A stretch of DNA of 64,000 bases from Bacteroidota bacterium (GTDB lineage: Bacteria; Bacteroidota; Bacteroidia; 2-12-FULL-35-15), in NCBI GenBank assembly GCA_029237775.1, contig JAQZBR010000003.1, positions 24,214 to 88,213 on the forward strand, given 5' to 3'. Numbering within the stretch: the stretch's first letter is position 1; the number at the start of each line of letters is the position of its first letter. Shown here piece by piece: positions 1 to 25,890 of the stretch. The notes below the pieces were generated by a model that did not search any database, was not told where the DNA came from, and worked only from the letters and a program-made list of their open reading frames with translations. Made by a program: the position numbers and the translations under genes.

Positions 1-2305
1 CTGACGATGTGATGTAAGTGTTCCTATAGTCTTTTCCTGCCTCAATAAAGAAATTGCGGATACCCTGTGGTAACTGTTCTTTTATTTTTACACGGGTTTC
101 TCCATGGCGGTCCATAATATAAATTTTCCCCTGCTGATCGATCACACATAAATGATCTTTAGCGTTCGACTTGAAATATTGCAAGGGAAGAAATACTGTA
201 TTGGTTGTTGAAGGTTCTTTGAATCCGGTAACACTCTCACCGTTTGATTTAAAGCACAGGATCTTTTTGTTCTCACAGGCGATAAAAATTCTATAATCGC
301 GGTTGCCTTCATAATCAATTACAGAAAGTGCATTTGTCGCAGGGGATTTTAAGTTGATCGGGAAACCGTTCATTTCATTGCCGTTTCGGTCGTACATGTA
401 AATGGAAGACCGTGTATTAAAGATCATTTGCAGCTTGTTATTTTTTAAGACGTCCACCTGTATGACATCACTCATGATCCTTTCGCTAAGCTGTTTGGTC
501 CAGATGATCTTTCCTGTATTGCTTATGAAATATAATTTGTTCGCATTATCCTGGATCAGTACATCCTTTGATTTGTTGTTGTGATTGGTAAGGAGGAATG
601 GTTTCGGGCTTACCGTTGTATCAAGCTGTGTTTCCCACAATGTACCAGCTTCCTGCTTGTATTCCGGATTATATTTTAAATAAATATTACTGTAAAAAAG
701 CTCATCACTATTATAGCTGAACTGGATGCCCGCAGATTCAAACTTCTGAAAGATCGGAAGCTTGCTGTCGATGTCTTTTCGTATCTGATCTGTGACCGCG
801 CCTTTGTAGAGATTCGTTGATCTGGCGATCGCGGAATAAATGTAGATGCTGGCTTCTTCCGAGATGTTTTCAGCAAAGGCCTGATAATTCTTGTTGTTGG
901 AAAGCGTTTTATTTCCTTCGTAATTGGTTATAAACCTCTGAAGAGCAATGTCACTGTTACCGAAAACAATGTAATCAGCAATGGAAGTAAAATAGCCTCC
1001 ATTTACATTTTTAAATTGGGAGCCATACGTGTTTTTTAAGAGGCCGGGAATGTTTAGCCTGTCAATCACATGATTGCGGAAGGATGTAGTATCTGTCTTT
1101 TCATTGTTGTATAGATCGCAAGTATCAGATAAAGAATATAGAATATTCTGAGCATTAAGAATGTCGTTTGTCTGAAATACTGCGTAGGTGTTTTCGCTCT
1201 GATTGTCAGAACCAGGTTCCGTGATTACCAACGCCATTTCATTGCCCGGCCAGCTGAGCATTTCCGTTTCAAATGTGCTGTGATATTTGTGCTCCAGCGT
1301 ATCCTGGAAATTTTTCTTGCCGGACCATAGAGAGTTTGCTTTTAAATATTTTTCATGCTCTCGCTGAAAAGCTTCCATATTGCTGATCCCGAAGTACATC
1401 AAATAAGCTGTTTCGGATGGAATTATTTCAGTGACATCGATGTGCTGCGGTTTCTGTTCCCTGAAAATATTAAGATAGTTGGATGCAGAGTCGTCTGAAG
1501 AAGTAAAGCCATTTAGCATCAGGGCATTCGGTTTTAGCGTAATGTCCCATCCGGAATAATCTGCGAAATGCTTTAAAGAACTGAGATCGCTTTTGCTTTC
1601 TTTTCTGATCGATCCTGTAAACAATTCAGGCAACAATTTATAGTTAATGTAAAAATTAGCATCCACATTCTTTCCGGCTGCATCAAGAACTGTCTTGAAG
1701 CTTTTATTTCCCGATAAATTCGTTTTAGAATTTAATTGATGAACGGAAGCATGCATTAATTCTGCATTGCTGCTCATAATGAGGATACCTGAAGCGATGC
1801 AGAAATTCAAAACGGGTTTACCCGGAATTTTAATCGCTCCTGTTTTTTCATTTTCGAACTCGGAATAAATAATTTCCTTGCGATTTATTTTTTCAAGAAA
1901 TTGTTCGGCTTGACCTTTATAGGTGAGGTTAGGGAGACTATAAACAAATAGCAGGTCATATGAACCTTTCTCATTCAAATGAGCCGACATTAAAACGGAA
2001 TGATCTTCCAGCAACGGAAGGATCAAAGGGTCCGTGTTCAGAATCGAATCAATGAAGTTTGCTTGTTTATCAATATTAGCAACCGTGGCTGTTCCCAGCA
2101 GCTCCTCCCACATGATGTTTGTCTGTGATAGTTTCTTCCAGGTCTCGAACGATTTTTTACTTTCAACGATAAAAGCGGCATCAGTCGGTATTGCGGTGAT
2201 TCCGGGTGCGACAGGTGTTGCTACTTTTTTGGTATAAAAGAACCAATAAATACTTCCGGCAAGGAATAAAGAAATGAAGGCACCGAAAAATATTTTTTTT
2301 CGCAT
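1..2305 (-). CDS. Large membrane-anchored/periplasmic hypothetical protein (DUF3352-like); 3' end runs off the window
   Basis: Absent from the ORF track because there is no stop in the window. ATG at 2305 gives MRKKIFFGAFISLFLAGSIYWFFY (N-terminal TM). The same frame still reads as protein at the left edge (NFFIEAGKDYRNTYITSS). Only spot-checked for internal stops. Confidence 0.75.
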   Translation of the reverse strand, partial: MRKKIFFGAFISLFLAGSIYWFFYTKKVATPVAPGITAIPTDAAFIVESKKSFETWKKLSQTNIMWEELLGTATVANIDKQANFIDSILNTDPLILPLLEDHSVLMSAHLNEKGSYDLLFVYSLPNLTYKGQAEQFLEKINRKEIIYSEFENEKTGAIKIPGKPVLNFCIASGILIMSSNAELMHASVHQLNSKTNLSGNKSFKTVLDAAGKNVDANFYINYKLLPELFTGSIRKESKSDLSSLKHFADYSGWDITLKPNALMLNGFTSSDDSASNYLNIFREQKPQHIDVTEIIPSETAYLMYFGISNMEAFQREHEKYLKANSLWSGKKNFQDTLEHKYHSTFETEMLSWPGNEMALVITEPGSDNQSENTYAVFQTNDILNAQNILYSLSDTCDLYNNEKTDTTSFRNHVIDRLNIPGLLKNTYGSQFKNVNGGYFTSIADYIVFGNSDIALQRFITNYEGNKTLSNNKNYQAFAENISEEASIYIYSAIARSTNLYKGAVTDQIRKDIDSKLPIFQKFESAGIQFSYNSDELFYSNIYLKYNPEYKQEAGTLWETQLDTTVSPKPFLLTNHNNKSKDVLIQDNANKLYFISNTGKIIWTKQLSERIMSDVIQVDVLKNNKLQMIFNTRSSIYMYDRNGNEMNGFPINLKSPATNALSVIDYEGNRDYRIFIACENKKILCFKSNGESVTGFKEPSTTNTVFLPLQYFKSNAKDHLCVIDQQGKIYIMDRHGETRVKIKEQLPQGIRNFFIEAGKDYRNTYITSS

Positions 2306-2387
2306 TGAAGTTAAGTAAGCATTGTAAAATTAAGGAATAGAAGAGGGGATGCTAGTACCAGGAAAGGAACTTACTAACACAAAAAGG

Positions 2388-3002
2388 TTAATCCAGCTCA
2401 GGCTCGAGCTCAAGCGCCATTTGATCAGGTGAAAGGGTGAAGCTTCTTCTGTGATGCTCAGTGATCCCGAACTCCTGAATCGCCAGACGGTGACTTTTGG
2501 TTGCGTAGGCTTTGTTGTTCATCCAGTCGTAATGCGGAAATGAGTGGTGCAGCTCTTTCATATAATCATCACGGTAAGTCTTTGCGAGGATGGATGCAGC
2601 TGCAATGCTCATGTATTTGCCATCGCCTTCAATGATGCAATGATGAGGGATGTCTTTGTATTTGTTAAAACGGTTACCATCAATAAGAAGGCTTTCCGGA
2701 ATCACCAGGAGTTGATCAATGGCCCGATGCATTGCCAGAAAAGACGCGTTCAGGATGTTGATCTTATCGATCTCTTCAGCTGAAACTGAAGCCACAGCAT
2801 ATGCTATCGCATTTTCTTCAATGATGGGACGAAGAAATTGTCGCTGCGCTTCATTGAGCTTTTTGGAATCATTCAGCAATGCATGCTTGAATTTCTTTGG
2901 CAGGATCACAGCGGCCGCAAACACGGGGCCTGCAAGGCAGCCTCTGCCGGCTTCATCACAGCCTGCTTCGATCTTGATCTTATCCAAATACTTTTTTAAC
3001 AT
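2388..3002 (-). CDS. rnhB: Ribonuclease HII
   Basis: [22 protein letters not shown] and [13 protein letters not shown] motifs. Confidence 0.97.
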
Positions 3003-3100
3003 GAAATGCTTGTTCCTATTGCGAAAATACGATTTTAGAAAGATAGATCACTGAAGAAGTTTTCCACAGCAGCAAAGTTAATGGTGGAAAAGTTAAATGG

Positions 3101-3423
3101 AAAAGTGGGAAAGTTAAATGTTAAAGGGGGAAACGTTTAAAGGTTTCTGATACTAAGTTTAATTTAAGGAGTGAACAGGTTTACATGCGCAATATGATTT
3201 AAATTTCGCCAAACCTTAGCGTCTTAGCCTTTGTGGTAAAGATTTAAGTTAGAAGTTAATAGTTAAAGGTTAAAAGTTAAAAGTGGAGGAAGTTAAATTG
3301 TTAGAGGGAAAAAAGTTAAAAATTTCTGATATTGAATATTAATGTTAGGAGTGAACAGTATTAAATGTGCGATATGATTTAAATAGGCGAAAACCTTAGC
3401 GTCTTAGCGCCTTTGTGGTTAAA
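3101..3423. repeat. Degenerate intergenic direct duplication with a 180-bp period
   Basis: AGGAGTGAACAG at 3167 and 3347; AAACCTTAGCGTCTTAGC at 3211 and 3391. Confidence 0.85.
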
Positions 3424-3430
3424 TTTAAAG

Positions 3431-3545
3431 CTTAGTGTTCTTAGTGCCTTAGTGGTGAAAAACTGAGCATATCCTCTGCGATCCTCCGCGTAATCCTCCG
3501 CGACCTCTGCGGTTAAACCTTTCTTAGTGCCCTCCGTGGTGAAAA
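3431..3545. repeat. Cluster of short CTTAGTG/CTCYGCG...GGTKAAA-type intergenic repeats; related copies at about 4852-4880 and 4957-4986
   Basis: CTTAGTGTTCTTAGTGCCTTAGTGGTGAAAA; CCTCTGCGATCCTCCGCGTAATCCTCCGCGACCTCTGCGGTTAAA; CTTCGTGCCTTTGCGCTTTTGCGGTAAAA. Confidence 0.7.
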
Positions 3546-3546
3546 A

Positions 3547-4674
3547 CTATCCTTTTACCGTTTTTATTACACTCTCCCACAAAGCCTCAGCTGTCTTATC
3601 CCAACTGTAATTGAGCTTACGCAGCCTTCCTTTTTCAATCAGGTTTTTCCGTAATTCCGGTTGTGAATAGATTTTGAACATGCCTTCAGAGATCGAATCA
3701 ACAGAGAATGGATCAACTAATAGAGCTGCGTCACCTGCTACTTCAGGCATGGAAGTGACATTGCTTGTGATCACAGGTGTGTCACAATTCATTGCCTCGA
3801 GGATAGGAATCCCAAAGCCTTCAAAATAAGGAACGTAAGTGAGCGCCAGTGCAGAGCCTAGAACATTTTTCAGTTCTTTACTCGTTAGACGGCCGGTAAA
3901 CACCACATCCTTTTTGTATTTCATTCCGATGTATGTCCTTTTTATCGCTGAGGTCCAATAATACTTTTCCCCAACGATAACAAGTTTTACATCACTTTGC
4001 GATCTCGATTTGAACTCATCAAAAGCTTCAAATAAACGTGAAATGTTTTTACGTGGGTGCAATGCGCCAACGAAAAGAAAATACTCTTTTGATTCGCTGT
4101 ATTTAAGTCGGGTAGCTGCTTGTATTTCTGCATTAACAGGCGAATACATCGTATTGCAACCATTGTTCACAACGTCAATCTTAGCTGCGTCTATTCCGTA
4201 TGTTTTTACAATGTCCTTTTTGGAAAATTCGGAAACAGTGGCTATTCTGCTGGCCTTTCTGGCAAAACGGGGGAAGAAGTATTTATAATACTTTCTTACT
4301 GTGAATGAAACGTCATTGGGATAGTGCTCAAAATTAAGATCATGGATCACAGCGAGCTGCTTACATTTGCTGTTGAGCGATAAGTATCCATCAGGTGAAA
4401 TGAAAATATCCGGCTTTAATTTGTTAAGAACGCTGGCGACAGAAAACTCGAACCAAAGCCAGAAAAGAATGGGATGACGTGCTTGTGGTGAAAGGATCAA
4501 GGGCGTAACGTTATCTGCGAAAAGAAACTCCTCATCAAAATCCCGGTCGAACAAAAAGATAAAATGATGTTCAGGATGATTGTTGGTGATTCGCTTAAGT
4601 GTTTCATAGCTGAACCAGCCAATGCCTTCAAGCTTATTCTTTAATAAAAGTCGGGTGTTTACAACGATCTCCAT
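3547..4674 (-). CDS. Glycosyltransferase family 4 (GT-B)
   Basis: FEGFGIPILEAM EX7E motif; start taken at ATG 4674 (MEIVVNTRLL). Confidence 0.93.
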   Translation of the reverse strand: MEIVVNTRLLLKNKLEGIGWFSYETLKRITNNHPEHHFIFLFDRDFDEEFLFADNVTPLILSPQARHPILFWLWFEFSVASVLNKLKPDIFISPDGYLSLNSKCKQLAVIHDLNFEHYPNDVSFTVRKYYKYFFPRFARKASRIATVSEFSKKDIVKTYGIDAAKIDVVNNGCNTMYSPVNAEIQAATRLKYSESKEYFLFVGALHPRKNISRLFEAFDEFKSRSQSDVKLVIVGEKYYWTSAIKRTYIGMKYKKDVVFTGRLTSKELKNVLGSALALTYVPYFEGFGIPILEAMNCDTPVITSNVTSMPEVAGDAALLVDPFSVDSISEGMFKIYSQPELRKNLIEKGRLRKLNYSWDKTAEALWESVIKTVKG

Positions 4675-5027
4675 GTCTGTCCCGCGAAAATAAGGATTAT
4701 TCAAGAAGTCAAAAGAGAAAAAAGTCAAAATTCAAAAAGGATTATAGCAAGCTTAGTCATTAATCCTCGCAGACTTCGTCTGATGCAACCGTTGGGAAAT
4801 CACCTTTAGAAGTGAACAGTTCAATGTAATAAAATGAAAAACATTAAAAATCTTCGTGCCTTTGCGCTTTTGCGGTAAAAATCCTTCTGTATGTCCATAT
4901 ACAAAAGAACCTGATTCTATGCGATAAAGATTGGTACCGTCAATCTCAGTAAAGATCTTAATGTCCTTAGTGCCTAAGTGGTAAAAAAAGCGTGCAATTC
5001 CCATAAAAATTATACTTTTGCAGCCTG

Positions 5028-5762
5028 ATGAAAAATGCCGCGAAATACATTCTGCATAAATTATTAGGCTTTAAAAATTATCTTTTTGTTTTTTCCCTTT
5101 TTAAGATCTATACATTAAAACGTGATAAAAATGAAAAAGACTTTTTTCAGTTTCTCGGCCTGATCCCGGAAAATACGGCTGTGCTTGATATTGGCGCGAA
5201 TATCGGGATCATGACTGTTTATCTTGCAAAGATCAGAAATTGCGAAGTGTTCAGCTTCGAGCCTATGCCTAATAACATCAGTGCATTTAAACGGATTGTC
5301 GATCATTTCAAATTAAATAACGTAAGACTTTTTGAAATGGCTCTCGGTAATCATGAGGGCGAAGCGGAGATGGTAATGCCTGTAATCAGCTCTGTCAGAA
5401 TGCAGGGTCTCAGTCACGTAGTACATGAATCCATTCCCGAAAACAATGAAGGTGAACGCTTTAAGGTTCCTTTACGGATGCTTGACAAACTGCCCGAACT
5501 TATCTCCTGCAGCAAACGCATTAGTGCTATTAAAATCGATGTAGAAAATTTCGAGTTTTTTGTCCTGGATGGTGCAAAAACACTTATCTCTCGAAATAAA
5601 CCCGTTATATATGCGGAGTTATGGGATAATGATAACCGTTACAAGTGTTTTGACCTTCTTGAAAATCTTAATTATAACACTTATGTTGCTGTAAATGAGA
5701 AGCTTGTTTTGTTTGATCCTTCCACTCACATTAAACAGAATTTTATCTTTATACCTGCCTAA
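5028..5762 (+). CDS. FkbM family SAM-dependent methyltransferase
   Basis: VLDIGANIG, FSFEP and IKIDVE motifs; TACTTTTG box just upstream. Confidence 0.92.
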   Translation: MKNAAKYILHKLLGFKNYLFVFSLFKIYTLKRDKNEKDFFQFLGLIPENTAVLDIGANIGIMTVYLAKIRNCEVFSFEPMPNNISAFKRIVDHFKLNNVRLFEMALGNHEGEAEMVMPVISSVRMQGLSHVVHESIPENNEGERFKVPLRMLDKLPELISCSKRISAIKIDVENFEFFVLDGAKTLISRNKPVIYAELWDNDNRYKCFDLLENLNYNTYVAVNEKLVLFDPSTHIKQNFIFIPA

Positions 5763-16868: not shown

Positions 16869-17837
16869 TTACTTTTTTGACTTTTTCGTTTTGCTCTTTT
16901 TCGCTTTTGATTTTTTTGCGGCAGGTTTGTCTTTAAGTTTAGTTTTCCCTTTAACAATCACTGTTGTATGTCTTTCAGCTTTAATATCTTGTTTAGAAGG
17001 AAGGAATTCCCTTTCTTTCAATGCATAACCGTTACGTTTAGAAAGTATATGAACCCTTAGGTTTTCAATACACAATGGCACATCGGGCGCTGCGTATGCA
17101 ATATTTGTATGGCCTACATCCTTCCCATCAATTATTACCACCATTCCGGATCCTTTGCATTCAGCTCTGTTTCCTTTTTTAATTACAAGGGCGGTGTCTT
17201 CTCCGAGTCCGATCCCAATACAAGCCGGGTTCATTACTATTGATTGTGCAAGTCTTCCAAATCTTCCGCGCTTAATAAAATGGGTGTCAATAATACAGCC
17301 GTGTATAAACCCGAGTCCGGAGGAGAACTTTACTGTCTGACTCAGCATTGCTTCGTTGTTTTCTCCTTCATACAACATTAAGCCTGACATGGCCATCGCT
17401 CCCGCACTGGTGCCCGCTACAATAAAATCGGAATCATGCACGTATTTATGTTTTACGGCATCTATCACATCTGAACTCCCTAAAATTGTCGCAAGCCTGA
17501 ATTGATCTCCGCCACTGAAAAGTACAGAGTGCGCTTTATGGATGCGTTCTACATATTTAGGATAATCAGCCTCTTCATGATTGCTCATATTTATAAAGCC
17601 AACCTCTTTGAAGCCGATTTTCTTAAAGGCTTCCTTATACATCTCATTGACTTCTTTTGGAACTGAAGAAGCGGTGGTAATGATCTCAATTTTCTTTTTA
17701 TTTCTTTTTTTGTCTTTAGGCAGTAATTCGGATAGGATCTCAAACTCTTCATATTCTCTGTTCCTGGTCAAGGCTCTTCCGTCACCTTTATCTTCTGCTC
17801 CCCCTATCAGGATCAATGTTCCTTTTGGCACTTTCAT
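16869..17837 (-). CDS. cphB: Cyanophycinase (peptidase S51) with a Lys-rich C-terminal tail
   Basis: IGGAEDK, FSGGDQ, GTSAGA (Ser), IDTHFIKRGRFGRL (His) and GLGEDT (Glu); ATGA overlap with the upstream cphA paralog. Confidence 0.95.
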   Translation of the reverse strand: MKVPKGTLILIGGAEDKGDGRALTRNREYEEFEILSELLPKDKKRNKKKIEIITTASSVPKEVNEMYKEAFKKIGFKEVGFINMSNHEEADYPKYVERIHKAHSVLFSGGDQFRLATILGSSDVIDAVKHKYVHDSDFIVAGTSAGAMAMSGLMLYEGENNEAMLSQTVKFSSGLGFIHGCIIDTHFIKRGRFGRLAQSIVMNPACIGIGLGEDTALVIKKGNRAECKGSGMVVIIDGKDVGHTNIAYAAPDVPLCIENLRVHILSKRNGYALKEREFLPSKQDIKAERHTTVIVKGKTKLKDKPAAKKSKAKKSKTKKSKK

Positions 17838-20407
17838 ATATTAATAGTTTTATTTTGTTCCTTCTCCTGTTTCTCAGTTACAAAGCTTATGATTTCATGC
17901 ACTTTGTCGGCACAGGCAAGAATGACTGAACCTCTTTTTGCAGCAGCTATTGCATGCTCTATAGCCTTTTTTTCATCTGCGATTATCTCTACCTGCATCG
18001 AAGGACATTCTTCTTTTATACCTTCCATTAAAAGATTGGAATGCTCCTCAGCAGGACGGCCTCGTAAATCTTTATCGTAACGGATTATTATTTTGTCGAA
18101 CATCTGTGCGGCATATTTGCCAAGACAGCGTATGTCATCATCTCTACGGTCGCCTGTGGCCGCAATGATTCCTACCTTTTCAGAGGCTTCGGTTTTATCA
18201 AGGAATTTCTTTAATTCCATATAGCCGCTTTTATTGTGTGCATAGTCAATGATGAAATCGAAATCATTGAACTTAAATACATTTAATCTGCCGGGAGTTT
18301 TCTCAGGCGATGGGACGAATGACAACAATCCGTTTCGTACCGATTCCGGATCAAACTTGTTAATGATCATCACCGCAAGCGATGCTGCAAGAATATTCTG
18401 GATCATAAATTCAGCTTTACCGTCAAAGCTTAGAGGAATATTGGCGATTTTGTCGATTCGTGTTTTCCACTCACCGTTGTAAATTGTAAGATACTCCTCC
18501 TCAATAACTGCAGCAACTCCGCCATTCTCACAATGTGTCCTCACGCGTTCATTATTTTCATTCAGACTGAAGAGTGCGATCTTGCAGTTAGTGAATTGTT
18601 GCATATTATAGACGAGATCATCATCAGCATTCAGGATGGCATATCCGTCCTTCTTTGTAGCTTTCGCCACCACAAGCTTAACCTTAGAGAGTTCTTCAAG
18701 CGTTTCTATGTCTTTTGTTCCGAGGTGATCATCGGAAACATTTGTAACTATACTGATATCGCACTGGTCAAATCCCAATCCCGATCTTATAATTCCTCCC
18801 CTGGCACATTCAAGCACTGCCATGTCGATAGTTGGGTCGAAAAGCACGGTCTGCGCGCTAACGGATCCGGTGCAATCACCTTCTTCAATTAAATGATTAT
18901 TGATATAGATACCTTCTGTGGTAGTATATCCGACAGTATGGCCAGCCTCTTTAAGGATGTGTGCCGTCAGTCGTGTGGTAGTTGTCTTACCGTTAGTGCC
19001 TGTTACAGCAATTAACGGAATGCGCGTGTCATTATCAGGAAAAAGCATATCGATTATCGGCTTTGCGACATTGCGCGGAATCCCGATAGTGGGATTGGTA
19101 TGCATTCTGATTCCCGGCCCTGCATTCACTTCAATGATAGCTCCGGTCTTTTTCGTTAAAGGCTGGCTTACATCAGTTGTTAATATATCTATTCCACAAA
19201 TGTTAAGGTTGAAAAGCTTAGCGATATGTTCAGCCATAAAAACATTTTCGGGATGAACAATGTCTGTTACGTCTGTAGATGTCCCGCCTGCGCTGATGTT
19301 CGCTATTTCCTTTAAATATAGATTTTGGCCTTCATGCAAAACACTTTCAAGGGTAAGGGATTTGGAGGCAAGTATTTTCTTTGTTACATCATCCGCTTTG
19401 ATTAGTGCGAGCGGATGTTCCTGAGAGGAGCCGCGGTCAGGATGCTGGTTTTCTTTTTCAATAAGCTCAGCGATAGTAGACTTGCCATCACCTGTAACAT
19501 TGGCCGGAGTGCGTTTAGCGACTGCAACAAGTTTATAGTTGATCACCAGAAAACGATGATCGTCTCCTTTTATAAATTCTTCCACTATTACGGCACGTGA
19601 GATCTTTTGAGCGACCTCGAGGCCATGGATAGCCTTTTCGATCGAATTTATTTCCGTTGTTACGCCACGCCCGTGATTTCCATCAAGAGGTTTTGTAACA
19701 AGAGGGAATTGCATGTTCTTTATTTCTTCAAGTAATTCTTCTTTATCATAAACTATGACGCCTTTCGGCACGGGAAGCTTTGAATCTTCCAACATTTTCT
19801 TGGTTTCCTCTTTATCTCCGGCAAGTTCAATGCCGATACCACTGGTAGAGTCAACAAGTGCCGTCCTCATTTTCTTTTGCTTGCGGCCATATCCAAGCGT
19901 TATCAGAGAACCATTATCAAATCGTTTGTACGGAATATTTCGGCTGATCGCTTCGTTCAAAATGAATGAAGTGGTGGCTCCCATGTCTTCATCACTTCTT
20001 ATGTCCTCAAGCTCTTCAATGAATTTATGTATATCCGGAGATTGTTTCTGAACAAGGGATTCCACGATCTTCACGGCCGAGGCCGCTGCAAACTTGCCTG
20101 CATCTTCAAATTCGTAAGAAAATATGATGCGAAAAATTTCGGGTTGTCGTGTTGTTAATACCGCGCCATACTCCGCGTGCATTCCTGCTTTTCTTTGAAG
20201 TTCGAGAGCAATGGTTTTTACTGCTTCGGCAATTTCATTCGCTGTGGATAATGAAGGGTGTGCATCAGGGAATATCCGTAGCACTTCAGACTGTAATTCC
20301 GAAGCTTCTGCATTCCCGACATTTAATTTAAATACAATAAGTTTCGAATGCTGGTCAGCCCATTGATTGGGTCCGCGCATTACTTTCAATTCTATGATCT
20401 CAAACAT
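17834..20407 (-). CDS. cphA: Cyanophycin synthetase paralog with a degenerate N domain
   Basis: RGPNxW start; ATP-grasp motifs KPLDGNHGRG, DHRFLV and EVNAGPGIRMH; Mur-ligase motifs TGTNGKTTT, ECARGG, DHLG and DYAHN; no Cx19HxxEH. Confidence 0.9.
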   Translation of the reverse strand: MFEIIELKVMRGPNQWADQHSKLIVFKLNVGNAEASELQSEVLRIFPDAHPSLSTANEIAEAVKTIALELQRKAGMHAEYGAVLTTRQPEIFRIIFSYEFEDAGKFAAASAVKIVESLVQKQSPDIHKFIEELEDIRSDEDMGATTSFILNEAISRNIPYKRFDNGSLITLGYGRKQKKMRTALVDSTSGIGIELAGDKEETKKMLEDSKLPVPKGVIVYDKEELLEEIKNMQFPLVTKPLDGNHGRGVTTEINSIEKAIHGLEVAQKISRAVIVEEFIKGDDHRFLVINYKLVAVAKRTPANVTGDGKSTIAELIEKENQHPDRGSSQEHPLALIKADDVTKKILASKSLTLESVLHEGQNLYLKEIANISAGGTSTDVTDIVHPENVFMAEHIAKLFNLNICGIDILTTDVSQPLTKKTGAIIEVNAGPGIRMHTNPTIGIPRNVAKPIIDMLFPDNDTRIPLIAVTGTNGKTTTTRLTAHILKEAGHTVGYTTTEGIYINNHLIEEGDCTGSVSAQTVLFDPTIDMAVLECARGGIIRSGLGFDQCDISIVTNVSDDHLGTKDIETLEELSKVKLVVAKATKKDGYAILNADDDLVYNMQQFTNCKIALFSLNENNERVRTHCENGGVAAVIEEEYLTIYNGEWKTRIDKIANIPLSFDGKAEFMIQNILAASLAVMIINKFDPESVRNGLLSFVPSPEKTPGRLNVFKFNDFDFIIDYAHNKSGYMELKKFLDKTEASEKVGIIAATGDRRDDDIRCLGKYAAQMFDKIIIRYDKDLRGRPAEEHSNLLMEGIKEECPSMQVEIIADEKKAIEHAIAAAKRGSVILACADKVHEIISFVTEKQEKEQNKTINI

Positions 20408-20430
20408 AAATAACCCTCTTATTCGTTAGG

Positions 20431-20461
20431 AAAAAACGGGAGCAAATTTTGTTTGCTCCCG
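20431..20461 (-). terminator. Intrinsic terminator between the ferritin-like gene and the cphA paralog
   Basis: 10-bp stem CGGGAGCAAA/TTTGCTCCCG followed by six U on the minus strand. Confidence 0.75.
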
Positions 20462-20469
20462 GGAAAGAT

Positions 20470-21060
20470 TTACTTTTTCTTTGCAGCTTTTTTAGCCTTT
20501 TTCGGTGATTCTTCATCCTCCTCTTCAGAGGCTGCCTGCATATTAATGGTGGCTTCTGCCACTTCTGTTAGTTTTTCATCTGCAGCTTTCTCCTGATCTA
20601 ATATTTCTCCAAGCAACGTTGCAGCATCATTCAAACCCAAAGTTTTAGCAAATTGGCGAAGTGTTCCATAGCTGGCAATTTCATAATGCTCAACCTTCTG
20701 TCCCGCAGAAATGATTCCTGCGTCACGCATCGCTCCTGCATCTGCTTCTTTCATGATTTCTTCAGCTTCTTTTACCAGTCCGGCCATTGCTTCACATTTT
20801 TTTGCGGTTGCTTTTTTACCGATCACTTTGAATACCTGCTCAAGCTTTTCGATCTGGCCTTCCGTTTCTTCCAGGTGATTCTCCAGGGCTGTGATCAGAT
20901 CTTCATTTGTAGCTTTCTTGGCCATTTTAGGAAGAGCTTTTGTCAATGCTTTTTCAGCCCAATAGATATCTTTTAATTCGTCTTCGAATAATTTCATGAG
21001 TTTTGATTCTTCGATGCCATATTCTGCAGACGCTTTTTTGCTTGTTGATTTTGATTTCAT
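20470..21060 (-). CDS. YciE/YciF (DUF892) ferritin-like stress protein with Lys-rich termini
   Basis: LKDIYWAEK, HLEETEGQ, KCEAMAGL and QKVEHYEIASYGTL motifs. Confidence 0.93.
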   Translation of the reverse strand: MKSKSTSKKASAEYGIEESKLMKLFEDELKDIYWAEKALTKALPKMAKKATNEDLITALENHLEETEGQIEKLEQVFKVIGKKATAKKCEAMAGLVKEAEEIMKEADAGAMRDAGIISAGQKVEHYEIASYGTLRQFAKTLGLNDAATLLGEILDQEKAADEKLTEVAEATINMQAASEEEDEESPKKAKKAAKKK

Positions 21061-21230: not shown

Positions 21231-22178
21231 ATGACTAAGGAAATGAAAAGGCATGCGATAGCAATACACGGAGGAGCCGGTACCATCACAAGAAACATAT
21301 TAACAAACGATCTGGAGCTGGCCTACAGGGGAGCTTTACAGGAAGCTATTGAAATGGGAGACAGAATTCTTGCAAAGGGAGGAAACGCCCTCGAAGCTGT
21401 CACCGCCAGCGTAGCGCTAATGGAGGAAAATGAATTATTTAATGCAGGAAAAGGTTCAGTGTTTAATCATGAGGGGAAACACGAGATGGATGCAGCCGTT
21501 ATGGATGGTAAAACCTTAATGGCAGGTGCTGTTTCCGGTATTCGTAATTTGAAGCACCCTGTTTTATTGGCTAAAGCGATTATGGAGAAGTCAGACCATG
21601 TTCTATTGGCTAATTCAGGAGCTGCAGACTTCGCCAGGGAAATGAATCTTGAATTTGCTCCGGATGATTATTTTTTCGTTCAGCATCGTTACGAACAATT
21701 TTTGGCTGCCAGGGCTGAAGGGCATGTTGTTCTGGATCACACTCAGCCCGGAGACGAGAAGAAATTCGGAACCGTAGGTGCTGTAGCTTTGGATGTTCAT
21801 GGTAATATTGCTGCCGCGACCTCAACGGGTGGTATGACCAATAAAAAATGGGGGAGGGTAGGTGATTCACCTATCATTGGAGCCGGAACATACGCTAACA
21901 ATAATACCTGCGCTATTTCCTGTACCGGACACGGGGAATACTTTATCAGATCAGTAGTAGCGTACGATATTTCATGTCTTATGGAATACAAAGGACTCAG
22001 CCTCAAAGAAGCCTGTGACCTTGTAGTGATGAAAAAGCTTGTTGAAATTGGCGGAGAAGGCGGATTGATAGCGATAGATACTATGGGTAATATTGAAATG
22101 CCTTTTAATTCTGAAGGAATGTATCGCGCGGTGAAGCATTCAGAACAGGATTATTTTATCGGTATCTATAAGGACTAA
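21231..22178 (+). CDS. iaaA: Isoaspartyl peptidase/L-asparaginase (Ntn hydrolase)
   Basis: IHGGAG, FNAGKG, EMDA, G-TVGAVA Thr nucleophile, TSTGG, GRVGDSP and TGHGE motifs. Confidence 0.95.
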   Translation: MTKEMKRHAIAIHGGAGTITRNILTNDLELAYRGALQEAIEMGDRILAKGGNALEAVTASVALMEENELFNAGKGSVFNHEGKHEMDAAVMDGKTLMAGAVSGIRNLKHPVLLAKAIMEKSDHVLLANSGAADFAREMNLEFAPDDYFFVQHRYEQFLAARAEGHVVLDHTQPGDEKKFGTVGAVALDVHGNIAAATSTGGMTNKKWGRVGDSPIIGAGTYANNNTCAISCTGHGEYFIRSVVAYDISCLMEYKGLSLKEACDLVVMKKLVEIGGEGGLIAIDTMGNIEMPFNSEGMYRAVKHSEQDYFIGIYKD

Positions 22179-22198
22179 GCCTCAACTATATTCAAAAT

Positions 22199-22233
22199 AA
22201 AAACGCCTCTTCGGTTTTCGAAGAGGCGTTTTT
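22199..22233. terminator. Bidirectional intrinsic terminator
   Basis: AAAAACGCCTCTTCG-GTTTT-CGAAGAGGCGTTTTT. Confidence 0.9.
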
Positions 22234-22249
22234 GTATGTTTAGTATTTA

Positions 22250-24898
22250 TCAGGATACTTTTGATAAAGGGAAAAGCTGGTTTCCGGATTTCTCATTTTC
22301 TTCTTTTAATTGCTTAACAAATGCAATACTTTTCTTTACATCTTCTGTACAAAGGAAAATAAAGCTTCCGTTAACGGCATTCTGCATAGATGTTAATAAT
22401 GCTTCCTGTTCGTTTGGAACCACAATAACAGGAATTGAACTGTTCACACTGTTGATTCCTTCCATAAGCAAAGCGGTAAGCTCATCGCAGTTTCTTCCAC
22501 GCAGGTCATCATCGTGACGGATGATAATATTCGTAAACATTTGCGCGGCATAGTAGCCGATATTGCGGATATCTTCATTTCTTCTATCGCCAACTGCAGT
22601 GATAATGCCTGTTTTTACCGGTGCATTGATGCTGTCCACAAACTTCTTCAATTCAACAAAACCTCCTGCATTGTGAGCGTAATCAACCATTACATCAAAA
22701 TTGCTGAATTTGAAATTATTCATGCGGCCAGGAGTATGCTCCGGTGAAGGAACAAATGAAAGCAAGGCGGCACGGATATCTTCCAGTTTGAAATTGCTGG
22801 CCATTCCTGCAAGCGTTGCTGCCAGAATGTTTTTAATCATTGCAGTTGCTTTACCCTGGAACGACAATGGTACATTCTCAATTCTGCAAACTCTTGTCTG
22901 CCATTCACCTTTGGTGATTGTCAGGTATCCTTTTTCGATTGTAGCTGCCATTCCACCGCGTTTGCAGTGACGAATGATGCGCTCATTATTTTCTTCAATG
23001 CTGAAAAGTGCTATGTTACAGTCAATGTCATATCTCAGATCATAAACCAGATCATCGTCTGCATTTAAAATGCTGAAACCATCATCAAATGTGCTTCTTG
23101 CCACAACCGCTTTCACTTTTGCCATCTCTTCAACATCGTCAATGCCATTTAAGCCAAGATGATCTTCGGAAATGTTGGTGATGATGCTCACATTGCAATT
23201 GTCGAAACCTAATCCTGCTCTTAAAATTCCACCACGAGCACATTCAAGGACTGCAAAATCAACAGTAGGATCTGTTAGAATCGCTTCTGCACTAACAGGG
23301 CCAGTGCAATCGCCATAGTGAACTGCGTGACCGTTAATATAAATTCCATCAGTTGTTGTAAATCCTGTTCTGAATCCCGCCTGTTTAGCCATGTGAGCAA
23401 CAAGCCTTGTTGTTGTTGTTTTTCCATTGGTTCCTGTTACGGCAACAATCGGGATCCGTGAAGGCTTTCCTTCCGGATATAACATACTCATCACAGGTTC
23501 TGCAACGTTTCTTGCTAAGCCTTTCGCAGGATTAAGGTGCATACGGAATCCCGGACATGCATTCACTTCAACTATCCCTCCAATTTCGTTTGTGATAGGT
23601 TGGTCTATATCCTTTGCCACAACATCGATCCCACAAATATCAAGGTTCATTATACGTGCGATCCTCTCGGCCATTAAAACATTGGCAGGGTGGACAAGAT
23701 CAGTTACATCGCGGGATGTTCCACCTGTGCTGATATTCGCTGTGTCTTTTAATAAAAGGATCTGTCCCATCGGAAGAATAGTGCTGAGAGTAAATCCCTT
23801 ATCATTTAAAATATTATTCGTGGTCTCATCCACAACGATCTTTGTCATTACTTTCTCATGTCCGTCTCCCCGGTTCGGATCATTGTTGGTCTGCTCTATA
23901 AGTTCAGCTATAGTGGAGAGGCCATCTCCCATAACCATTGCGGGTGTGCGTTTTGCCACTGCAACCAGTTTGTAATTGATAACAAGGAAGCGATAATCAT
24001 AACCTTCTATAAACCGTTCAACGATCACACTTTCGGAAATGGTTTTTGCTATGTGAAACGCTGCGATTGCCTGTTCAATATTTCTGATATTGGTCGTAAT
24101 ACCTCTACCGTGGTTGCCGTCAATAGGTTTAATCACAACAGGGAAGCTCATTTCCTGAAGTACATCGCGAAGTTCTTCTTCATCGCTGATCACTTCTCCG
24201 GTAGGTACCGGGATATATGCTTTTTTAAGAATTTTTTTTGTTTCGTCTTTATCACCCGCCAGATCAACTCCGATTGAAGCTGTATCAGAGGTCATAGAGG
24301 CACGGATCTTTTTCTGGTGAACACCCTGTCCGAAAAGGATCATTGATCCGCTGTTAAGTCGTTTGTATGGAATATTCCGTTTTTTAGCTTCGTTGATGAT
24401 AGACTGCGTGCTCGGGCCAAATGCTTCACGCTTATGAATTCTTCTTAAGCGGTCAAGGTCTGCATCCAGATCGTATGGTGTGCCATTAGCTAATGCGTCA
24501 CAGATTCTGATCGCTGCTTCAGCTGCGTATACCCCGGCCTTTTCAATCTCGTAGGAAAAGATCACATGATAGATCCCCGATTGTCCTGCCGAACGTGTGC
24601 GGCCGTAGCCCACTTCCATACCTGCAAGGGTTTGAATTTCCAGTGCGATATGTTCAACAACATGTCCCATCCATGTTCCGCTTTTGATCCGTTCGAAGAA
24701 TCCTCCTTCGTGGCCTTCGGAGCATCTGTGTTCAAACATGCTTGGAAACATTTCTTTGAGACGTTCACCAAAACCGGGGATTTTATTTGTAGGGAGCTGT
24801 TCGTACTTGCCGATATCCAGCTTCATGATAATCACATGTTGGCGGTAATTGGACCAATAGTTGGGTCCACGCATAATACTGAGGTCGAGAATATTCAT
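22250..24898 (-). CDS. cphA: Cyanophycin synthetase CphA1, canonical
   Basis: RGPNYWS; intact C-x19-HVVEH and YGRTR; GPST, KPIDGNHGRG, ANISTGG, TGTNGKTTT and DYAHN motifs; start taken at ATG 24898. Confidence 0.96.
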   Translation of the reverse strand: MNILDLSIMRGPNYWSNYRQHVIIMKLDIGKYEQLPTNKIPGFGERLKEMFPSMFEHRCSEGHEGGFFERIKSGTWMGHVVEHIALEIQTLAGMEVGYGRTRSAGQSGIYHVIFSYEIEKAGVYAAEAAIRICDALANGTPYDLDADLDRLRRIHKREAFGPSTQSIINEAKKRNIPYKRLNSGSMILFGQGVHQKKIRASMTSDTASIGVDLAGDKDETKKILKKAYIPVPTGEVISDEEELRDVLQEMSFPVVIKPIDGNHGRGITTNIRNIEQAIAAFHIAKTISESVIVERFIEGYDYRFLVINYKLVAVAKRTPAMVMGDGLSTIAELIEQTNNDPNRGDGHEKVMTKIVVDETTNNILNDKGFTLSTILPMGQILLLKDTANISTGGTSRDVTDLVHPANVLMAERIARIMNLDICGIDVVAKDIDQPITNEIGGIVEVNACPGFRMHLNPAKGLARNVAEPVMSMLYPEGKPSRIPIVAVTGTNGKTTTTRLVAHMAKQAGFRTGFTTTDGIYINGHAVHYGDCTGPVSAEAILTDPTVDFAVLECARGGILRAGLGFDNCNVSIITNISEDHLGLNGIDDVEEMAKVKAVVARSTFDDGFSILNADDDLVYDLRYDIDCNIALFSIEENNERIIRHCKRGGMAATIEKGYLTITKGEWQTRVCRIENVPLSFQGKATAMIKNILAATLAGMASNFKLEDIRAALLSFVPSPEHTPGRMNNFKFSNFDVMVDYAHNAGGFVELKKFVDSINAPVKTGIITAVGDRRNEDIRNIGYYAAQMFTNIIIRHDDDLRGRNCDELTALLMEGINSVNSSIPVIVVPNEQEALLTSMQNAVNGSFIFLCTEDVKKSIAFVKQLKEENEKSGNQLFPLSKVS

Positions 24899-24925
24899 AA
24901 GGGCATTTTTAGTTTGACCTGTTTT

Positions 24926-24942
24926 CAAGAAAAACTATGCCA
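24926..24942 (-). promoter_or_regulatory. GGYRY-N5-TT box (sigma54-like)
   Basis: Minus strand TGGCATAGTTTTTCTTG. Confidence 0.55.
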
Positions 24943-25109: not shown

Positions 25110-25670
25110 TTATTTTACGCGTTCAACATAAGAGTTTGTGCGTGTGTCAATCTTAATTTTCTCCCCTTCGTTCACAAATAAAGGAACGTTTACAACAGCT
25201 CCTGTTTCAAGGGTCGCAGGTTTTAAAGTGTTAGTTGCGGTATCACCTTTAACACCAGGCTCTGCATATGTTATAGTAAGCTCCACAAATGTAGGTGCCT
25301 CAGCAAGAATTGGCTCATCTCCTTCAAAAGACACTTTTACTTCCATACCTTCTTTAAGGAATTTAATGCTATCTCCTAAAAGAAATGCCGGTAAATGGAT
25401 CTGCTCAAATGTGTCATTATCCATGAGCACGATAAACTCGCCTTCAGGATAAATGAACTGCATCTGTTTGTAATCAACGCGAACCACTTCGACAGCTTCT
25501 CCCGCCCTGAAACGGTTTTCCACGATCTTGCCGTTCTTTAAATTACGCATACGTGCCTGGTAGAAGGCGCGAAGGTTTCCCGGTGTGCGGTGCTGGTATT
25601 CTTCTATTCTGCAAAGCTCACCGTTAAAGCGGATCACTGAACCTACGTTGATATCTCCTGAATTTGCCAT
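25110..25670 (-). CDS. efp: Translation elongation factor P
   Basis: HRTPGNLRAF loop, EPGVKGDTA, KPATLETG and VPLFV motifs; start taken at ATG 25670. Confidence 0.96.
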   Translation of the reverse strand: MANSGDINVGSVIRFNGELCRIEEYQHRTPGNLRAFYQARMRNLKNGKIVENRFRAGEAVEVVRVDYKQMQFIYPEGEFIVLMDNDTFEQIHLPAFLLGDSIKFLKEGMEVKVSFEGDEPILAEAPTFVELTITYAEPGVKGDTATNTLKPATLETGAVVNVPLFVNEGEKIKIDTRTNSYVERVK

Positions 25671-25890
25671 TTGATGATATGTTTTTGTAAAAGAGTTTAG
25701 AAATTGGTCTGCAAAGATATGATTTATGGCTTTACCTGCAAATCGTGACTTAACTGTTTTCACAACGGAGAAACGGAGTGCAGGGAGAGGTAAGAGTGAG
25801 GCTGATCGACCTGGTGTTACATTCAAATCGCCTTAAAATAAAAAATCCCCTGCTTTCGCAGAGGACTTTCTATTAAATTGAAATATATAA

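Follow-up and report, generated by a model that had tools for sequence, protein, structure and literature searches.

A cyanophycin synthetase paralog without the primer-generating site, kept beside a canonical CphA1 in Bacteroidota and probably a primer-dependent isozyme

Two cphA genes lie about 4 kb apart in the 64,000-nucleotide stretch of Bacteroidota DNA analysed here (the window), together with the neighbours listed in Table 1. The product of the shorter gene, hereafter the short paralog, is 52% identical to its canonical neighbour by BLASTP, and all 23 gap positions of that alignment fall within the N-terminal ~60 residues. For the canonical gene, the open reading frame as called spans 22250..24928 on the minus strand, with the likely start further in. 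The start of cphB overlaps the stop of the short cphA by 4 nt (ATGA), and the hairpin on the other side leaves only ~30 nt upstream of the short cphA ATG. Judged from the terminator-like hairpins and the opposite-strand gene between them, the two cphA genes are in separate transcription units. A scan of genome contigs for related loci found three, and the gene order EF-P, canonical cphA, iaaA, DUF892, short cphA, cphB was the same in all three of these MAG loci. By Pfam, the neighbouring CphB and IaaA are ordinary members of their families.

Table 1. Features of the two-synthetase locus, with positions in the window
Feature	Coordinates	Strand	Remarks
cphB-type cyanophycinase (S51)	16869..17837	-	Pfam Peptidase_S51; same neighbour in loci L007-L009
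Short cphA paralog ('short' CphA1, 857 aa)	17834..20407	-	ORF and translation; without Cx19HxxEH site
M (Mur-ligase-like) domain with lid, residues 469-857	17834..19003	-	Pfam Mur_ligase_M, Mur_ligase_C; no clade-specific change
G (ATP-grasp) domain, residues 143-468	19004..19981	-	Opens with GATT; all catalytic residues and 11 clade-specific substitutions
Gomega large loop KEIANISAGG, residues 366-375	19283..19312	-	Asp binders N and S kept; T to A after Ser
Gomega segment RGSSQEHPLALI, residues 325-336	19400..19435	-	Conserved His moved two positions; T to A
N domain, shortened, residues 1-142	19982..20407	-	From alignments
Terminator-like hairpin with T-run	20437..20461	-	Between DUF892 gene and short cphA
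DUF892 (YciE/YciF-like) gene	20470..21060	-	Pfam 198.5 bits; synteny in 3/3 related loci
iaaA-type isoaspartyl peptidase (Asparaginase_2)	21231..22178	+	Pfam 376.9 bits; synteny
Bidirectional terminator-like hairpin	22197..22235	.	Between iaaA and canonical cphA1
Canonical cphA1	22250..24898	-	Complete C59-x19-H79xxE82H83 site; likely start is the ATG giving MNILDL

The short paralog has the three-domain architecture of CphA1, with an N domain followed by an ATP-grasp (G) domain and a Mur-ligase-like (M) domain with its lid. Pfam found PF18921 Cyanophycin_syn (partial), RimK/ATP-grasp (PF08443/PF02222), PF08245 Mur_ligase_M and PF02875 Mur_ligase_C, the last two complete and with the P-loop GTNGKTTT. 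The N-domain model scored 160.7 bits on the canonical protein over profile positions 2-114, as against 42.7 bits over positions 53-115 on the short paralog; PF18921 itself had no match in any of 14 control genomes. An AF2 model of the short paralog (pLDDT 88.7) aligned by Foldseek to TeCphA1 (7wae_A) with a TMq of 0.93 over 878 columns, compared with 0.55-0.57 for CphA2. Its N-domain helices 58-73, 101-119 and 126-139 were modelled with block pLDDT values of mostly 89-96, the first of them (AEAVKTIALELQRKAG) being the former active-site helix.

In the canonical neighbour, counted from the MNILDL start, C59, H79, E82 and H83 coincide with SuCphA1 numbering, and H57, S60, F67, R70, E87, R100, T101 and Y110 are also present. 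All four metal-site residues are absent from the short paralog, in which residues 65-70 (the GGFFxR loop) are deleted, so that the combination marking primer-independent CphA1, namely Cx19HxxEH with supporting H57, F67 and R70, is not found in it. An earlier note on this DNA had described the metal site as replaced by a shorter segment free of ligands, and we found this exactly as written (CSEGHEGGFFERIKSGTWMGHVVEH vs ANEIAEAVKTIALE). The other motif pairs that it listed were likewise present in the two proteins: YGRTR/YGAVL, GPST/GATT, RGDGHEKVMTKI/RGSSQEHPLALI, ANISTGG/ANISAGG, TTDG/TTEG and RLRRIHKRE/ELEDIRSDED. As to whether these substitutions are conserved among orthologs, the loss of GGFFxR, the change of S163 to T and those in the Gomega segment and large loop held up, while two others proved not to be features of the class. 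At the TTDG site canonical rows had D in 52 and E in 24, and short rows E in 34 and D in 12; the helix before GPST had a mean charge of -0.37 (-4 to +3) in canonical rows and -1.61 (-7 to +4) in short ones, and it is acidic in SuCphA1 and TeCphA1 as well. By these alignments TTDG/TTEG and the charge flip of the helix are ordinary variation.

The same loss of the site was seen in 46 of the 123 homologs of our set, and these 46 form a single clade, reaching down to 53% identity, when the tree is computed from G and M sequences only. Because so many homologs share the loss as one clade, it is, as far as alignment and tree can tell, no local accident, and the short paralog is an old, well-conserved sister enzyme of the normal cyanophycin synthetase. 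Comparing the 46 clade members with 76 canonical rows, we found GGFFxR deleted and S163 changed to T in all 46. The Gomega His, present in 76/76 canonical rows, was missing from 45/46, with a new His two residues downstream in 46/46; T352 was changed to A in 44/46 and the large-loop T to A in 43/46. All four solved CphA1 structures retain GH..LT in the Gomega segment. Clade-diagnostic sites numbered 33 in the N domain, 11 in G and none in M, and against the 11 G-domain substitutions three control clades showed 0-2. There is more to this clade than the missing N site, since these 11 conserved changes are shared neither by TmCphA1 or AbCphA1 nor by another motif-less paralog of the same genome. 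The set of 11, including the CphA2-like large loop ANISAGG, appears to be undescribed.

Among G000 and 24 relatives of its genus, three of the 25 genomes carried the short type, and all three had a canonical copy next to it; in a class-wide sample of 401 genomes including G000, with two candidates scored per genome and the unpublished G190 and G113 counted as non-holders, it was found at >60% identity only in G000 and G004. Twenty further top hits in that sample comprised 18 canonical proteins, one cut by a contig end and one of another motif-less type, the genome of which also has a canonical copy. Co-occurrence with the canonical copy was read from DNA in the close subclade, that is in the window and the three related loci (one of which, L007, is the record of protein cluster P0009), and seven further short/canonical protein pairs presumably share a genome too. 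When metagenomes were scanned with P0033, a member of the deep half of the clade, all hits were distant (42-56% identity). A literature search of main texts returned no report of a Bacteroidota locus in which CphA1 paralogs with and without the motif are neighbours, and their conserved pairing in one locus appears not to have been described.

Both synthetase active sites of the short paralog are, by the sequence comparisons, under strong purifying selection. The protein of the window has every G-domain residue considered (K220, K261, H267, R309, R323, N394, S396, D431, E450 and R458 in Su/Te numbering; roles from PMC9427784) and M-domain K499, T500, T522, E558, D585 and H586 (roles from PMC9427784 and PMC9262961). 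Throughout the clade, K220, K261, R309, R323, N394, D431, E450, R458, K499, T500, E558 and H586 are kept in 46/46 members, S396 and D585 in 45/46 and H267 in 42/46. Over eight genome-paired orthologs (28 pairs), identities within the short and the canonical type were 0.846 vs 0.860 for G, 0.818 vs 0.819 for M and 0.537 vs 0.829 for N; the N domain of the short type thus diverges 2.7 times faster than that of the canonical type, with G and M as slow as in the latter. The earlier note had called for a dN/dS comparison of orthologs; dS was saturated in most pairs, and in the sole pair with usable dS (L007 vs L009) omega of the short copy was 0.049 in G, 0.040 in M and 0.157 in N, which indicates strong constraint on the two synthetase domains. 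The reading frame was intact in the window and in the three related loci read.

A characterized enzyme with the same features is TmCphA1 of Tatumella morbirosei (7LGN, the T. morbirosei structure also matched by Foldseek), which has the full N-G-M architecture, no Cx19HxxEH residue and intact G and M sites. Residues 4-120 of the short paralog align to 3-123 of its N domain, an almost gap-free alignment because the shortened loop has nearly the same length, and the TmCphA1-type combination of absent motif, intact G and M sites and 7lgn-like N layout recurs, by sequence and model, in the short paralog. According to PMC9262961, TmCphA1 has none of the four motif residues and depends on a primer, and SuCphA1 or its N domain alone rescues it in trans in vitro. 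The same study gives the motif as complete in 83% of nr70 CphA1, and since motif-less enzymes make up ~17-20% of the family, the kind as such is not new. The two enzymes differ in that they share only ~34-37% identity, come from different phyla and that the short paralog is kept beside a motif-bearing CphA1; moreover, five residues retained by TmCphA1 (S166, A203, H353, T358 and T397) are all altered in the short clade. Canonical CphA1, as in SuCphA1 (7LG5), TeCphA1 (7WAE) and the neighbouring gene, shares with the short type the three-domain fold (TMq 0.91-0.93) and the G and M catalytic residues, but has the N metallopeptidase site and differs at the 33 N and 11 G clade-specific positions. 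Tandem cphA/cphA' loci in Betaproteobacteria and others also hold two cphA paralogs but, as described in PMC10687191, have one catalytically degenerate partner and no cphB nearby, whereas the present locus includes cphB and iaaA, and G and M are retained in both of its paralogs.

We consider it probable, by analogy with the one characterized enzyme TmCphA1, that the short paralog is an active CphA1 isozyme which elongates efficiently only when supplied with chain ends, being primed in trans or by leftover chains. Asp would be added at the G domain and Arg at the M domain, the metallopeptidase site, which turns nascent polymer into primers by cleavage, having been lost; with that site gone, the short enzyme probably only lengthens chains begun by something else, and alone it should behave like TmCphA1, elongating efficiently only if given chain ends. 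The most likely sources of such ends in the cell are the canonical CphA1 encoded 4 kb away, which retains its N site, and chains left over from incomplete degradation. With the two genes in separate transcription units, primer making and elongation could be balanced against each other through expression, an option that a single three-site enzyme does not have. Of the earlier proposals, a primer-dependent elongase relying on the other CphA agrees best with the lost ligands and loop, the constrained G and M domains and the TmCphA1-like N domain. The further suggestion that CphB products might serve as primers found no support, as the beta-Asp-Arg dipeptide is no primer for TmCphA1, for which the minimal primer is (beta-Asp-Arg)-Asp (PMC9262961). 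The genome carries four cphA, three cyanophycinase-like and two iaaA genes, and its two further cphA genes could equally supply or use primers.

The note had also raised an altered dipeptide specificity, an idea to which the resemblance of the large loop to its CphA2 counterpart lends weak support. CphA2 is the beta-Asp-Arg dipeptide polymerase of cyanobacteria. If the G domain of the short paralog took beta-Asp-Arg too, as CphA2 does, a dual-mode enzyme could re-polymerize the products of the co-transcribed cyanophycinase, whose gene overlaps its own by 4 nt; we regard this as unlikely. Its loop KEIANISAGG has the states of solved CphA2 (RKVANISAGG in Gc, RKVANLSSGG in St) and not of the four solved CphA1 (TAN[IL]STGG), although only two CphA2 sequences entered that comparison, a hydrophobic residue precedes AN in only 12/46 clade members and S occurs at the loop position in 18/76 canonical Bacteroidota rows as well. 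A 61-aa region around the loop matched GcCphA2 (7ta5) best at 46.3 bits, with SuCphA1 at 36.7, and the same region of the canonical copy ranked CphA1 first (47.3 bits at the top, SuCphA1 42.8, GcCphA2 37.6); a 35-aa query of the PDB gave no match. The clade also has T at the positions of StCphA2 T163 and T202, which touch polymer, but GcCphA2 has S at the first of these. Like the short paralog, CphA2 has no HxxEH motif in its N domain (PMC9262961, Fig. 2 legend), and GcCphA2 (7TA5) shares the ANISAGG loop as StCphA2 (8FXH) does the two T residues; the M domain of CphA2, however, is truncated and inactive, without P-loop or lid, in proteins of ~630-650 aa, while that of the 857-aa short paralog is complete and under the same degree of constraint as its canonical counterpart, which an enzyme polymerizing dipeptides alone would not need. 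Overall, the short paralog resembles CphA1 in fold and sequence, and a region-restricted protein search for CphA2 returned 19 proteins, all of 842-891 aa and none of CphA2 length.

An improbable extension of this alternative would make the clade a natural CphA1/CphA2 hybrid, a primer-dependent elongase taking cyanophycinase-released beta-Asp-Arg as well as free Asp. The remodelled Gomega loop and polymer-contact residues would then admit the dipeptide, with the intact M domain covering the Asp route. If such an enzyme were real, Bacteroidota would have a recycling synthetase with an origin separate from that of cyanobacterial CphA2, and it would indicate which residues determine dipeptide specificity.

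Alternatively, the short paralog could, instead of standing alone, work only as a subunit of mixed tetramers with canonical CphA1, which we hold to be quite unlikely. CphA1 enzymes are tetramers of G-G dimers in which a residue binding the terminal Arg comes from the partner protomer (PMC9427784), and the two cphA genes are conserved neighbours; the genes are, however, in different transcription units, the paralogs are only 52% identical and the short copy, complete in every active site, should need no partner for catalysis.

Very unlikely, in our judgement, is a changed amino-acid specificity, by which another backbone or side-chain residue (Glu, Lys, ornithine etc.) would be used to make a second kind of polymer. 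The excess of clade-specific G-domain substitutions over the control clades is compatible with this, as is their placement next to substrate contacts, with T397A by S396, T/S three residues after R458 and L/M two after D431. Yet the residues that hold Asp in TeCphA1, R323, N394 and R458 (PMC9427784), are kept throughout the clade and the pocket residue S396 in 45/46, no clade-specific site falls in the M domain, which attaches the side-chain amino acid, and the adjacent CphB and IaaA are ordinary. We thus saw no sign in the sequences of altered Asp or Arg specificity, as the earlier note had thought possible. That the short copy is a decaying or non-catalytic duplicate is hardly tenable, for the fast divergence of its N domain is set against the low omega values (0.157 even in N, from one usable pair), catalytic residues invariant over a clade reaching 53% identity and an intact frame.

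With the primer-dependent isozyme as the preferred reading, one locus that holds a synthetase with and one without the primer-cutting site is a natural experiment, which lets one ask whether the expression levels of the two synthetases tune chain number and length. Cyanophycin is a nitrogen store of industrial interest, and primer dependence limits its heterologous yields (PMC9262961). For mutational work on polymer affinity and on the selection of Asp versus beta-Asp-Arg, the clade offers a list of 11 conserved changes in the G domain, several beside substrate or polymer contacts. The number of cphA, cyanophycinase-like and iaaA genes in the genome suggests that cyanophycin turnover is unusually important to this soil bacterium. 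The sequencing runs listed, none of them RNA, included two soil DNA runs with partial shares.

Counted from its MNILDL start, the canonical cphA1 product carries C59, H79, E82 and H83, exactly as in SuCphA1 numbering, and its translation further reads H57, S60, F67, R70, E87, R100, T101 and Y110. The short paralog, 52% identical to it in BLASTP with every gap within the first ~60 residues, has none of the four Cx19HxxEH ligands and has lost the GGFFxR loop, which confirmed the claim of an earlier note that the metal site had been lost. The Pfam N-domain model gave 42.7 bits on the paralog, covering only its second half, versus 160.7 bits on the canonical copy. Each of the motif pairs quoted in that note was found in the sequences; as class features, however, the listed substitutions did not hold for TTDG to TTEG, canonical rows having D in 52 cases and E in 24. 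Nor did a proposed basic-to-acidic flip of the helix before GPST stand, as the acidic form was confined to a close subclade and the charge ranges overlapped with those of canonical enzymes. That helix is acidic also in the reference enzymes SuCphA1 and TeCphA1, so that the basic helix of the canonical neighbour is equally the odd one.

A search of a 5.8-billion-protein collection listed 120 homologs, which together with the canonical neighbour and two other copies from the same genome gave a set of 123 rows. HxxEH was missing at the aligned columns in 47 of these, of which 46 formed a single clade (SH-like support 99) in a FastTree analysis using only columns of the ATP-grasp (G) and Mur-ligase-like (M) domains, with the N domain excluded; the 47th, another paralog of the same genome, was placed outside it. 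Rates in G and M were normal in the short clade, making long-branch attraction an unlikely cause of the grouping. The motif loss in the window is a property of a lineage and no accident, with most clade members coming from metagenomes. Defining a diagnostic site as one residue in at least 90% of other rows and in at most 20% of the clade, we found 33 such sites in N, 11 in G and none in M, while three canonical clades analyzed as controls (21, 18 and 28 rows) had 2–3 each, none of them in N.

The window protein contains all of the G residues K220, K261, H267, R309, R323, N394, S396, D431, E450 and R458 and the M residues K499, T500, T522, E558, D585 and H586, with roles as described in passages of PMC9427784 (Gcore/Gomega, catalytic residues, Mlid) and PMC9262961, and the named catalytic and substrate-binding residues were retained in 42–46 of the 46 clade members. 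Its AlphaFold2 model, made from a 50-row alignment, had a mean pLDDT of 88.7, a pTM of 0.83 and a well-folded N domain, with Foldseek TMq values of 0.93 to TeCphA1 and 0.75 to TmCphA1. On every feature examined the predicted product is a CphA1, lacking the N-site motif of the primer-independent subclass. CphA2 identity was rejected based upon a TMq of 0.55–0.57 and the presence of all M residues.

Constraint was assessed using short and canonical copies from eight genomes, with the window pair being direct and the other seven pairings inferred from contigs of identical length. Over 28 genome pairs, mean identities of short versus canonical copies were 0.846 versus 0.860 in G, 0.818 versus 0.819 in M and 0.537 versus 0.829 in N. 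Nei-Gojobori dS was saturated in most pairs and omega is thus given solely for L007 versus L009, two related MAG loci, being 0.157/0.049/0.040 (N/G/M) for the short copy and 0.069/0.061/0.048 for the canonical. These values indicate that the synthetase parts of the short copy are constrained like those of the canonical enzyme. Its N domain is relaxed yet still under selection, as expected if catalysis was lost but a structural or tethering role kept.

Residues 4–120 of the paralog N domain aligned to residues 3–123 of the primer-dependent TmCphA1 (7lgn) with small gaps only, whereas against Su/TeCphA1 it aligned as two pieces flanking the missing loop. According to passages of PMC9262961, TmCphA1 has none of the four motif residues and yields no polymer without primer, synthesis being restored in trans by SuCphA1 with dead G and M or by its isolated N domain; the complete motif occurs in 83% of nr70 CphA1, motif-less enzymes probably draw on leftover chains in vivo, and beta-Asp-Arg dipeptide is no primer, the minimum being (beta-Asp-Arg)-Asp. 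Given these reported results and the likeness to TmCphA1, the earlier proposal of a primer-dependent elongase is reasonable, but not its suggestion of priming by the dipeptide product of CphB. By analogy, the short enzyme would most likely lengthen chains in a primer-dependent manner, with primers arriving in trans from the neighbouring canonical enzyme or as remnant chains. Motif-less CphA1 is an already known kind, among which the conserved pairing and G-domain signature mark the short clade as a distinct variant.

Loss of the N site does not appear to account for the 11 G-domain changes, as judged from their absence in TmCphA1, AbCphA1, Su/TeCphA1 and the other motif-less paralog of the same genome. 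They include, in Su numbering, S166T and A203T (both 46/46); in Gomega, the subdomain with the large loop, loss of H353 (45/46), a new His at 355 (46/46) and T358A (44/46); T397A (43/46) in the position that follows the Ser of the Asp pocket; V433L/M two residues past the Mg ligand D431; and T/S (46/46) three residues past R458. The StCphA2 residues matching 166 and 203, T163 and T202, contact dipeptides 2 and 3 of bound polymer, as stated in a part of PMC10273328. When the window protein's large loop, KEIANISAGG, was compared with the PDB, GcCphA2 (RKVANISAGG) was the top match at 46.3 bits versus 36.7 for SuCphA1; the corresponding region of the canonical copy had CphA1 in first place. With two CphA2 sequences and two positions compared, one of them seen in just 12 of the 46 members, this resemblance is a lead and not a finding.

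ORF reading and Pfam revealed a compact cyanophycin locus whose genes, iaaA excepted, all lie on the minus strand, with the short cphA stop overlapping the cphB start (ATGA).

Cyanophycin genes and related features in the window and elsewhere in the same genome
Feature	Position	Strand	Remark
EF-P	25110-25826	-	Cyanophycin locus member
Canonical cphA1	22250-24898	-	Counted from MNILDL start
Terminator-like hairpin	22197-22235
iaaA-type isoaspartyl peptidase	21231-22178	+	Opposite to other locus genes
DUF892 gene	20470-21060	-	YciE/YciF-like, ferritin-like
Terminator-like hairpin	20437-20461
Short cphA paralog	17834-20407	-	857 aa
cphB-type S51 cyanophycinase	16869-17837	-
L003 (contig C7), canonical cphA	1501-4119	-	Full-length
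L003 (contig C7), cyanophycinase	4257-5180	+	Divergent from cphA
L004 (contig C5)	440-5038		iaaA-cphA-cphB row

Because of the terminator-like hairpins, the canonical and the short cphA probably form separate transcription units. The hairpin between the DUF892 gene and the short cphA (within 20408-20469) is strong (10 pairs and a T-run) and ends ~30 nt upstream of the short cphA ATG, leaving little promoter space, and the DUF892 gene may hence contribute read-through or attenuation. The DUF892 gene was kept in all four loci (window, L007, L008 and L009), and its product is Lys-rich at both ends. The cyanophycinase likewise ends in a Lys-rich tail of ~27 K/S/T/A residues (16869-16950, minus strand), tblastn matches to orthologs covering residues 2–291 only. 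The listed EF-P ORF begins at a TTG that precedes its conserved portion by ~50 codons; ortholog matches begin at residue 51–53, suggesting that the true start is probably an internal ATG.

The six-gene order was identical in 3/3 related MAG loci. Within the genus sample (the window's genome, G000, and 24 relatives), cphA was found in 23 of 25 genomes, mostly as a single canonical copy of the contig C7 type, with the short type in G000, G004 and G017, each time adjoining a canonical copy. Among 401 evenly drawn genomes of the class, including the unpublished G190 and G113, and with two candidates scored in each, the short type was detected only in G000 and G004. The window's genome (4.08 Mb) holds four full-length cphA, of which two have the motif and two lack it, along with three cyanophycinase-like S51 peptidase genes and two iaaA. 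In the product of the full-length, motif-less cphA of L004 the N domain is quite different and H267 is replaced by Q. The Bacteroidia genome G056 (L058 on C264; L042 on C5) encodes, besides a canonical enzyme, a third kind of motif-less CphA, 48% identical to the short paralog, which indicates that the motif was lost more than once in Bacteroidia.
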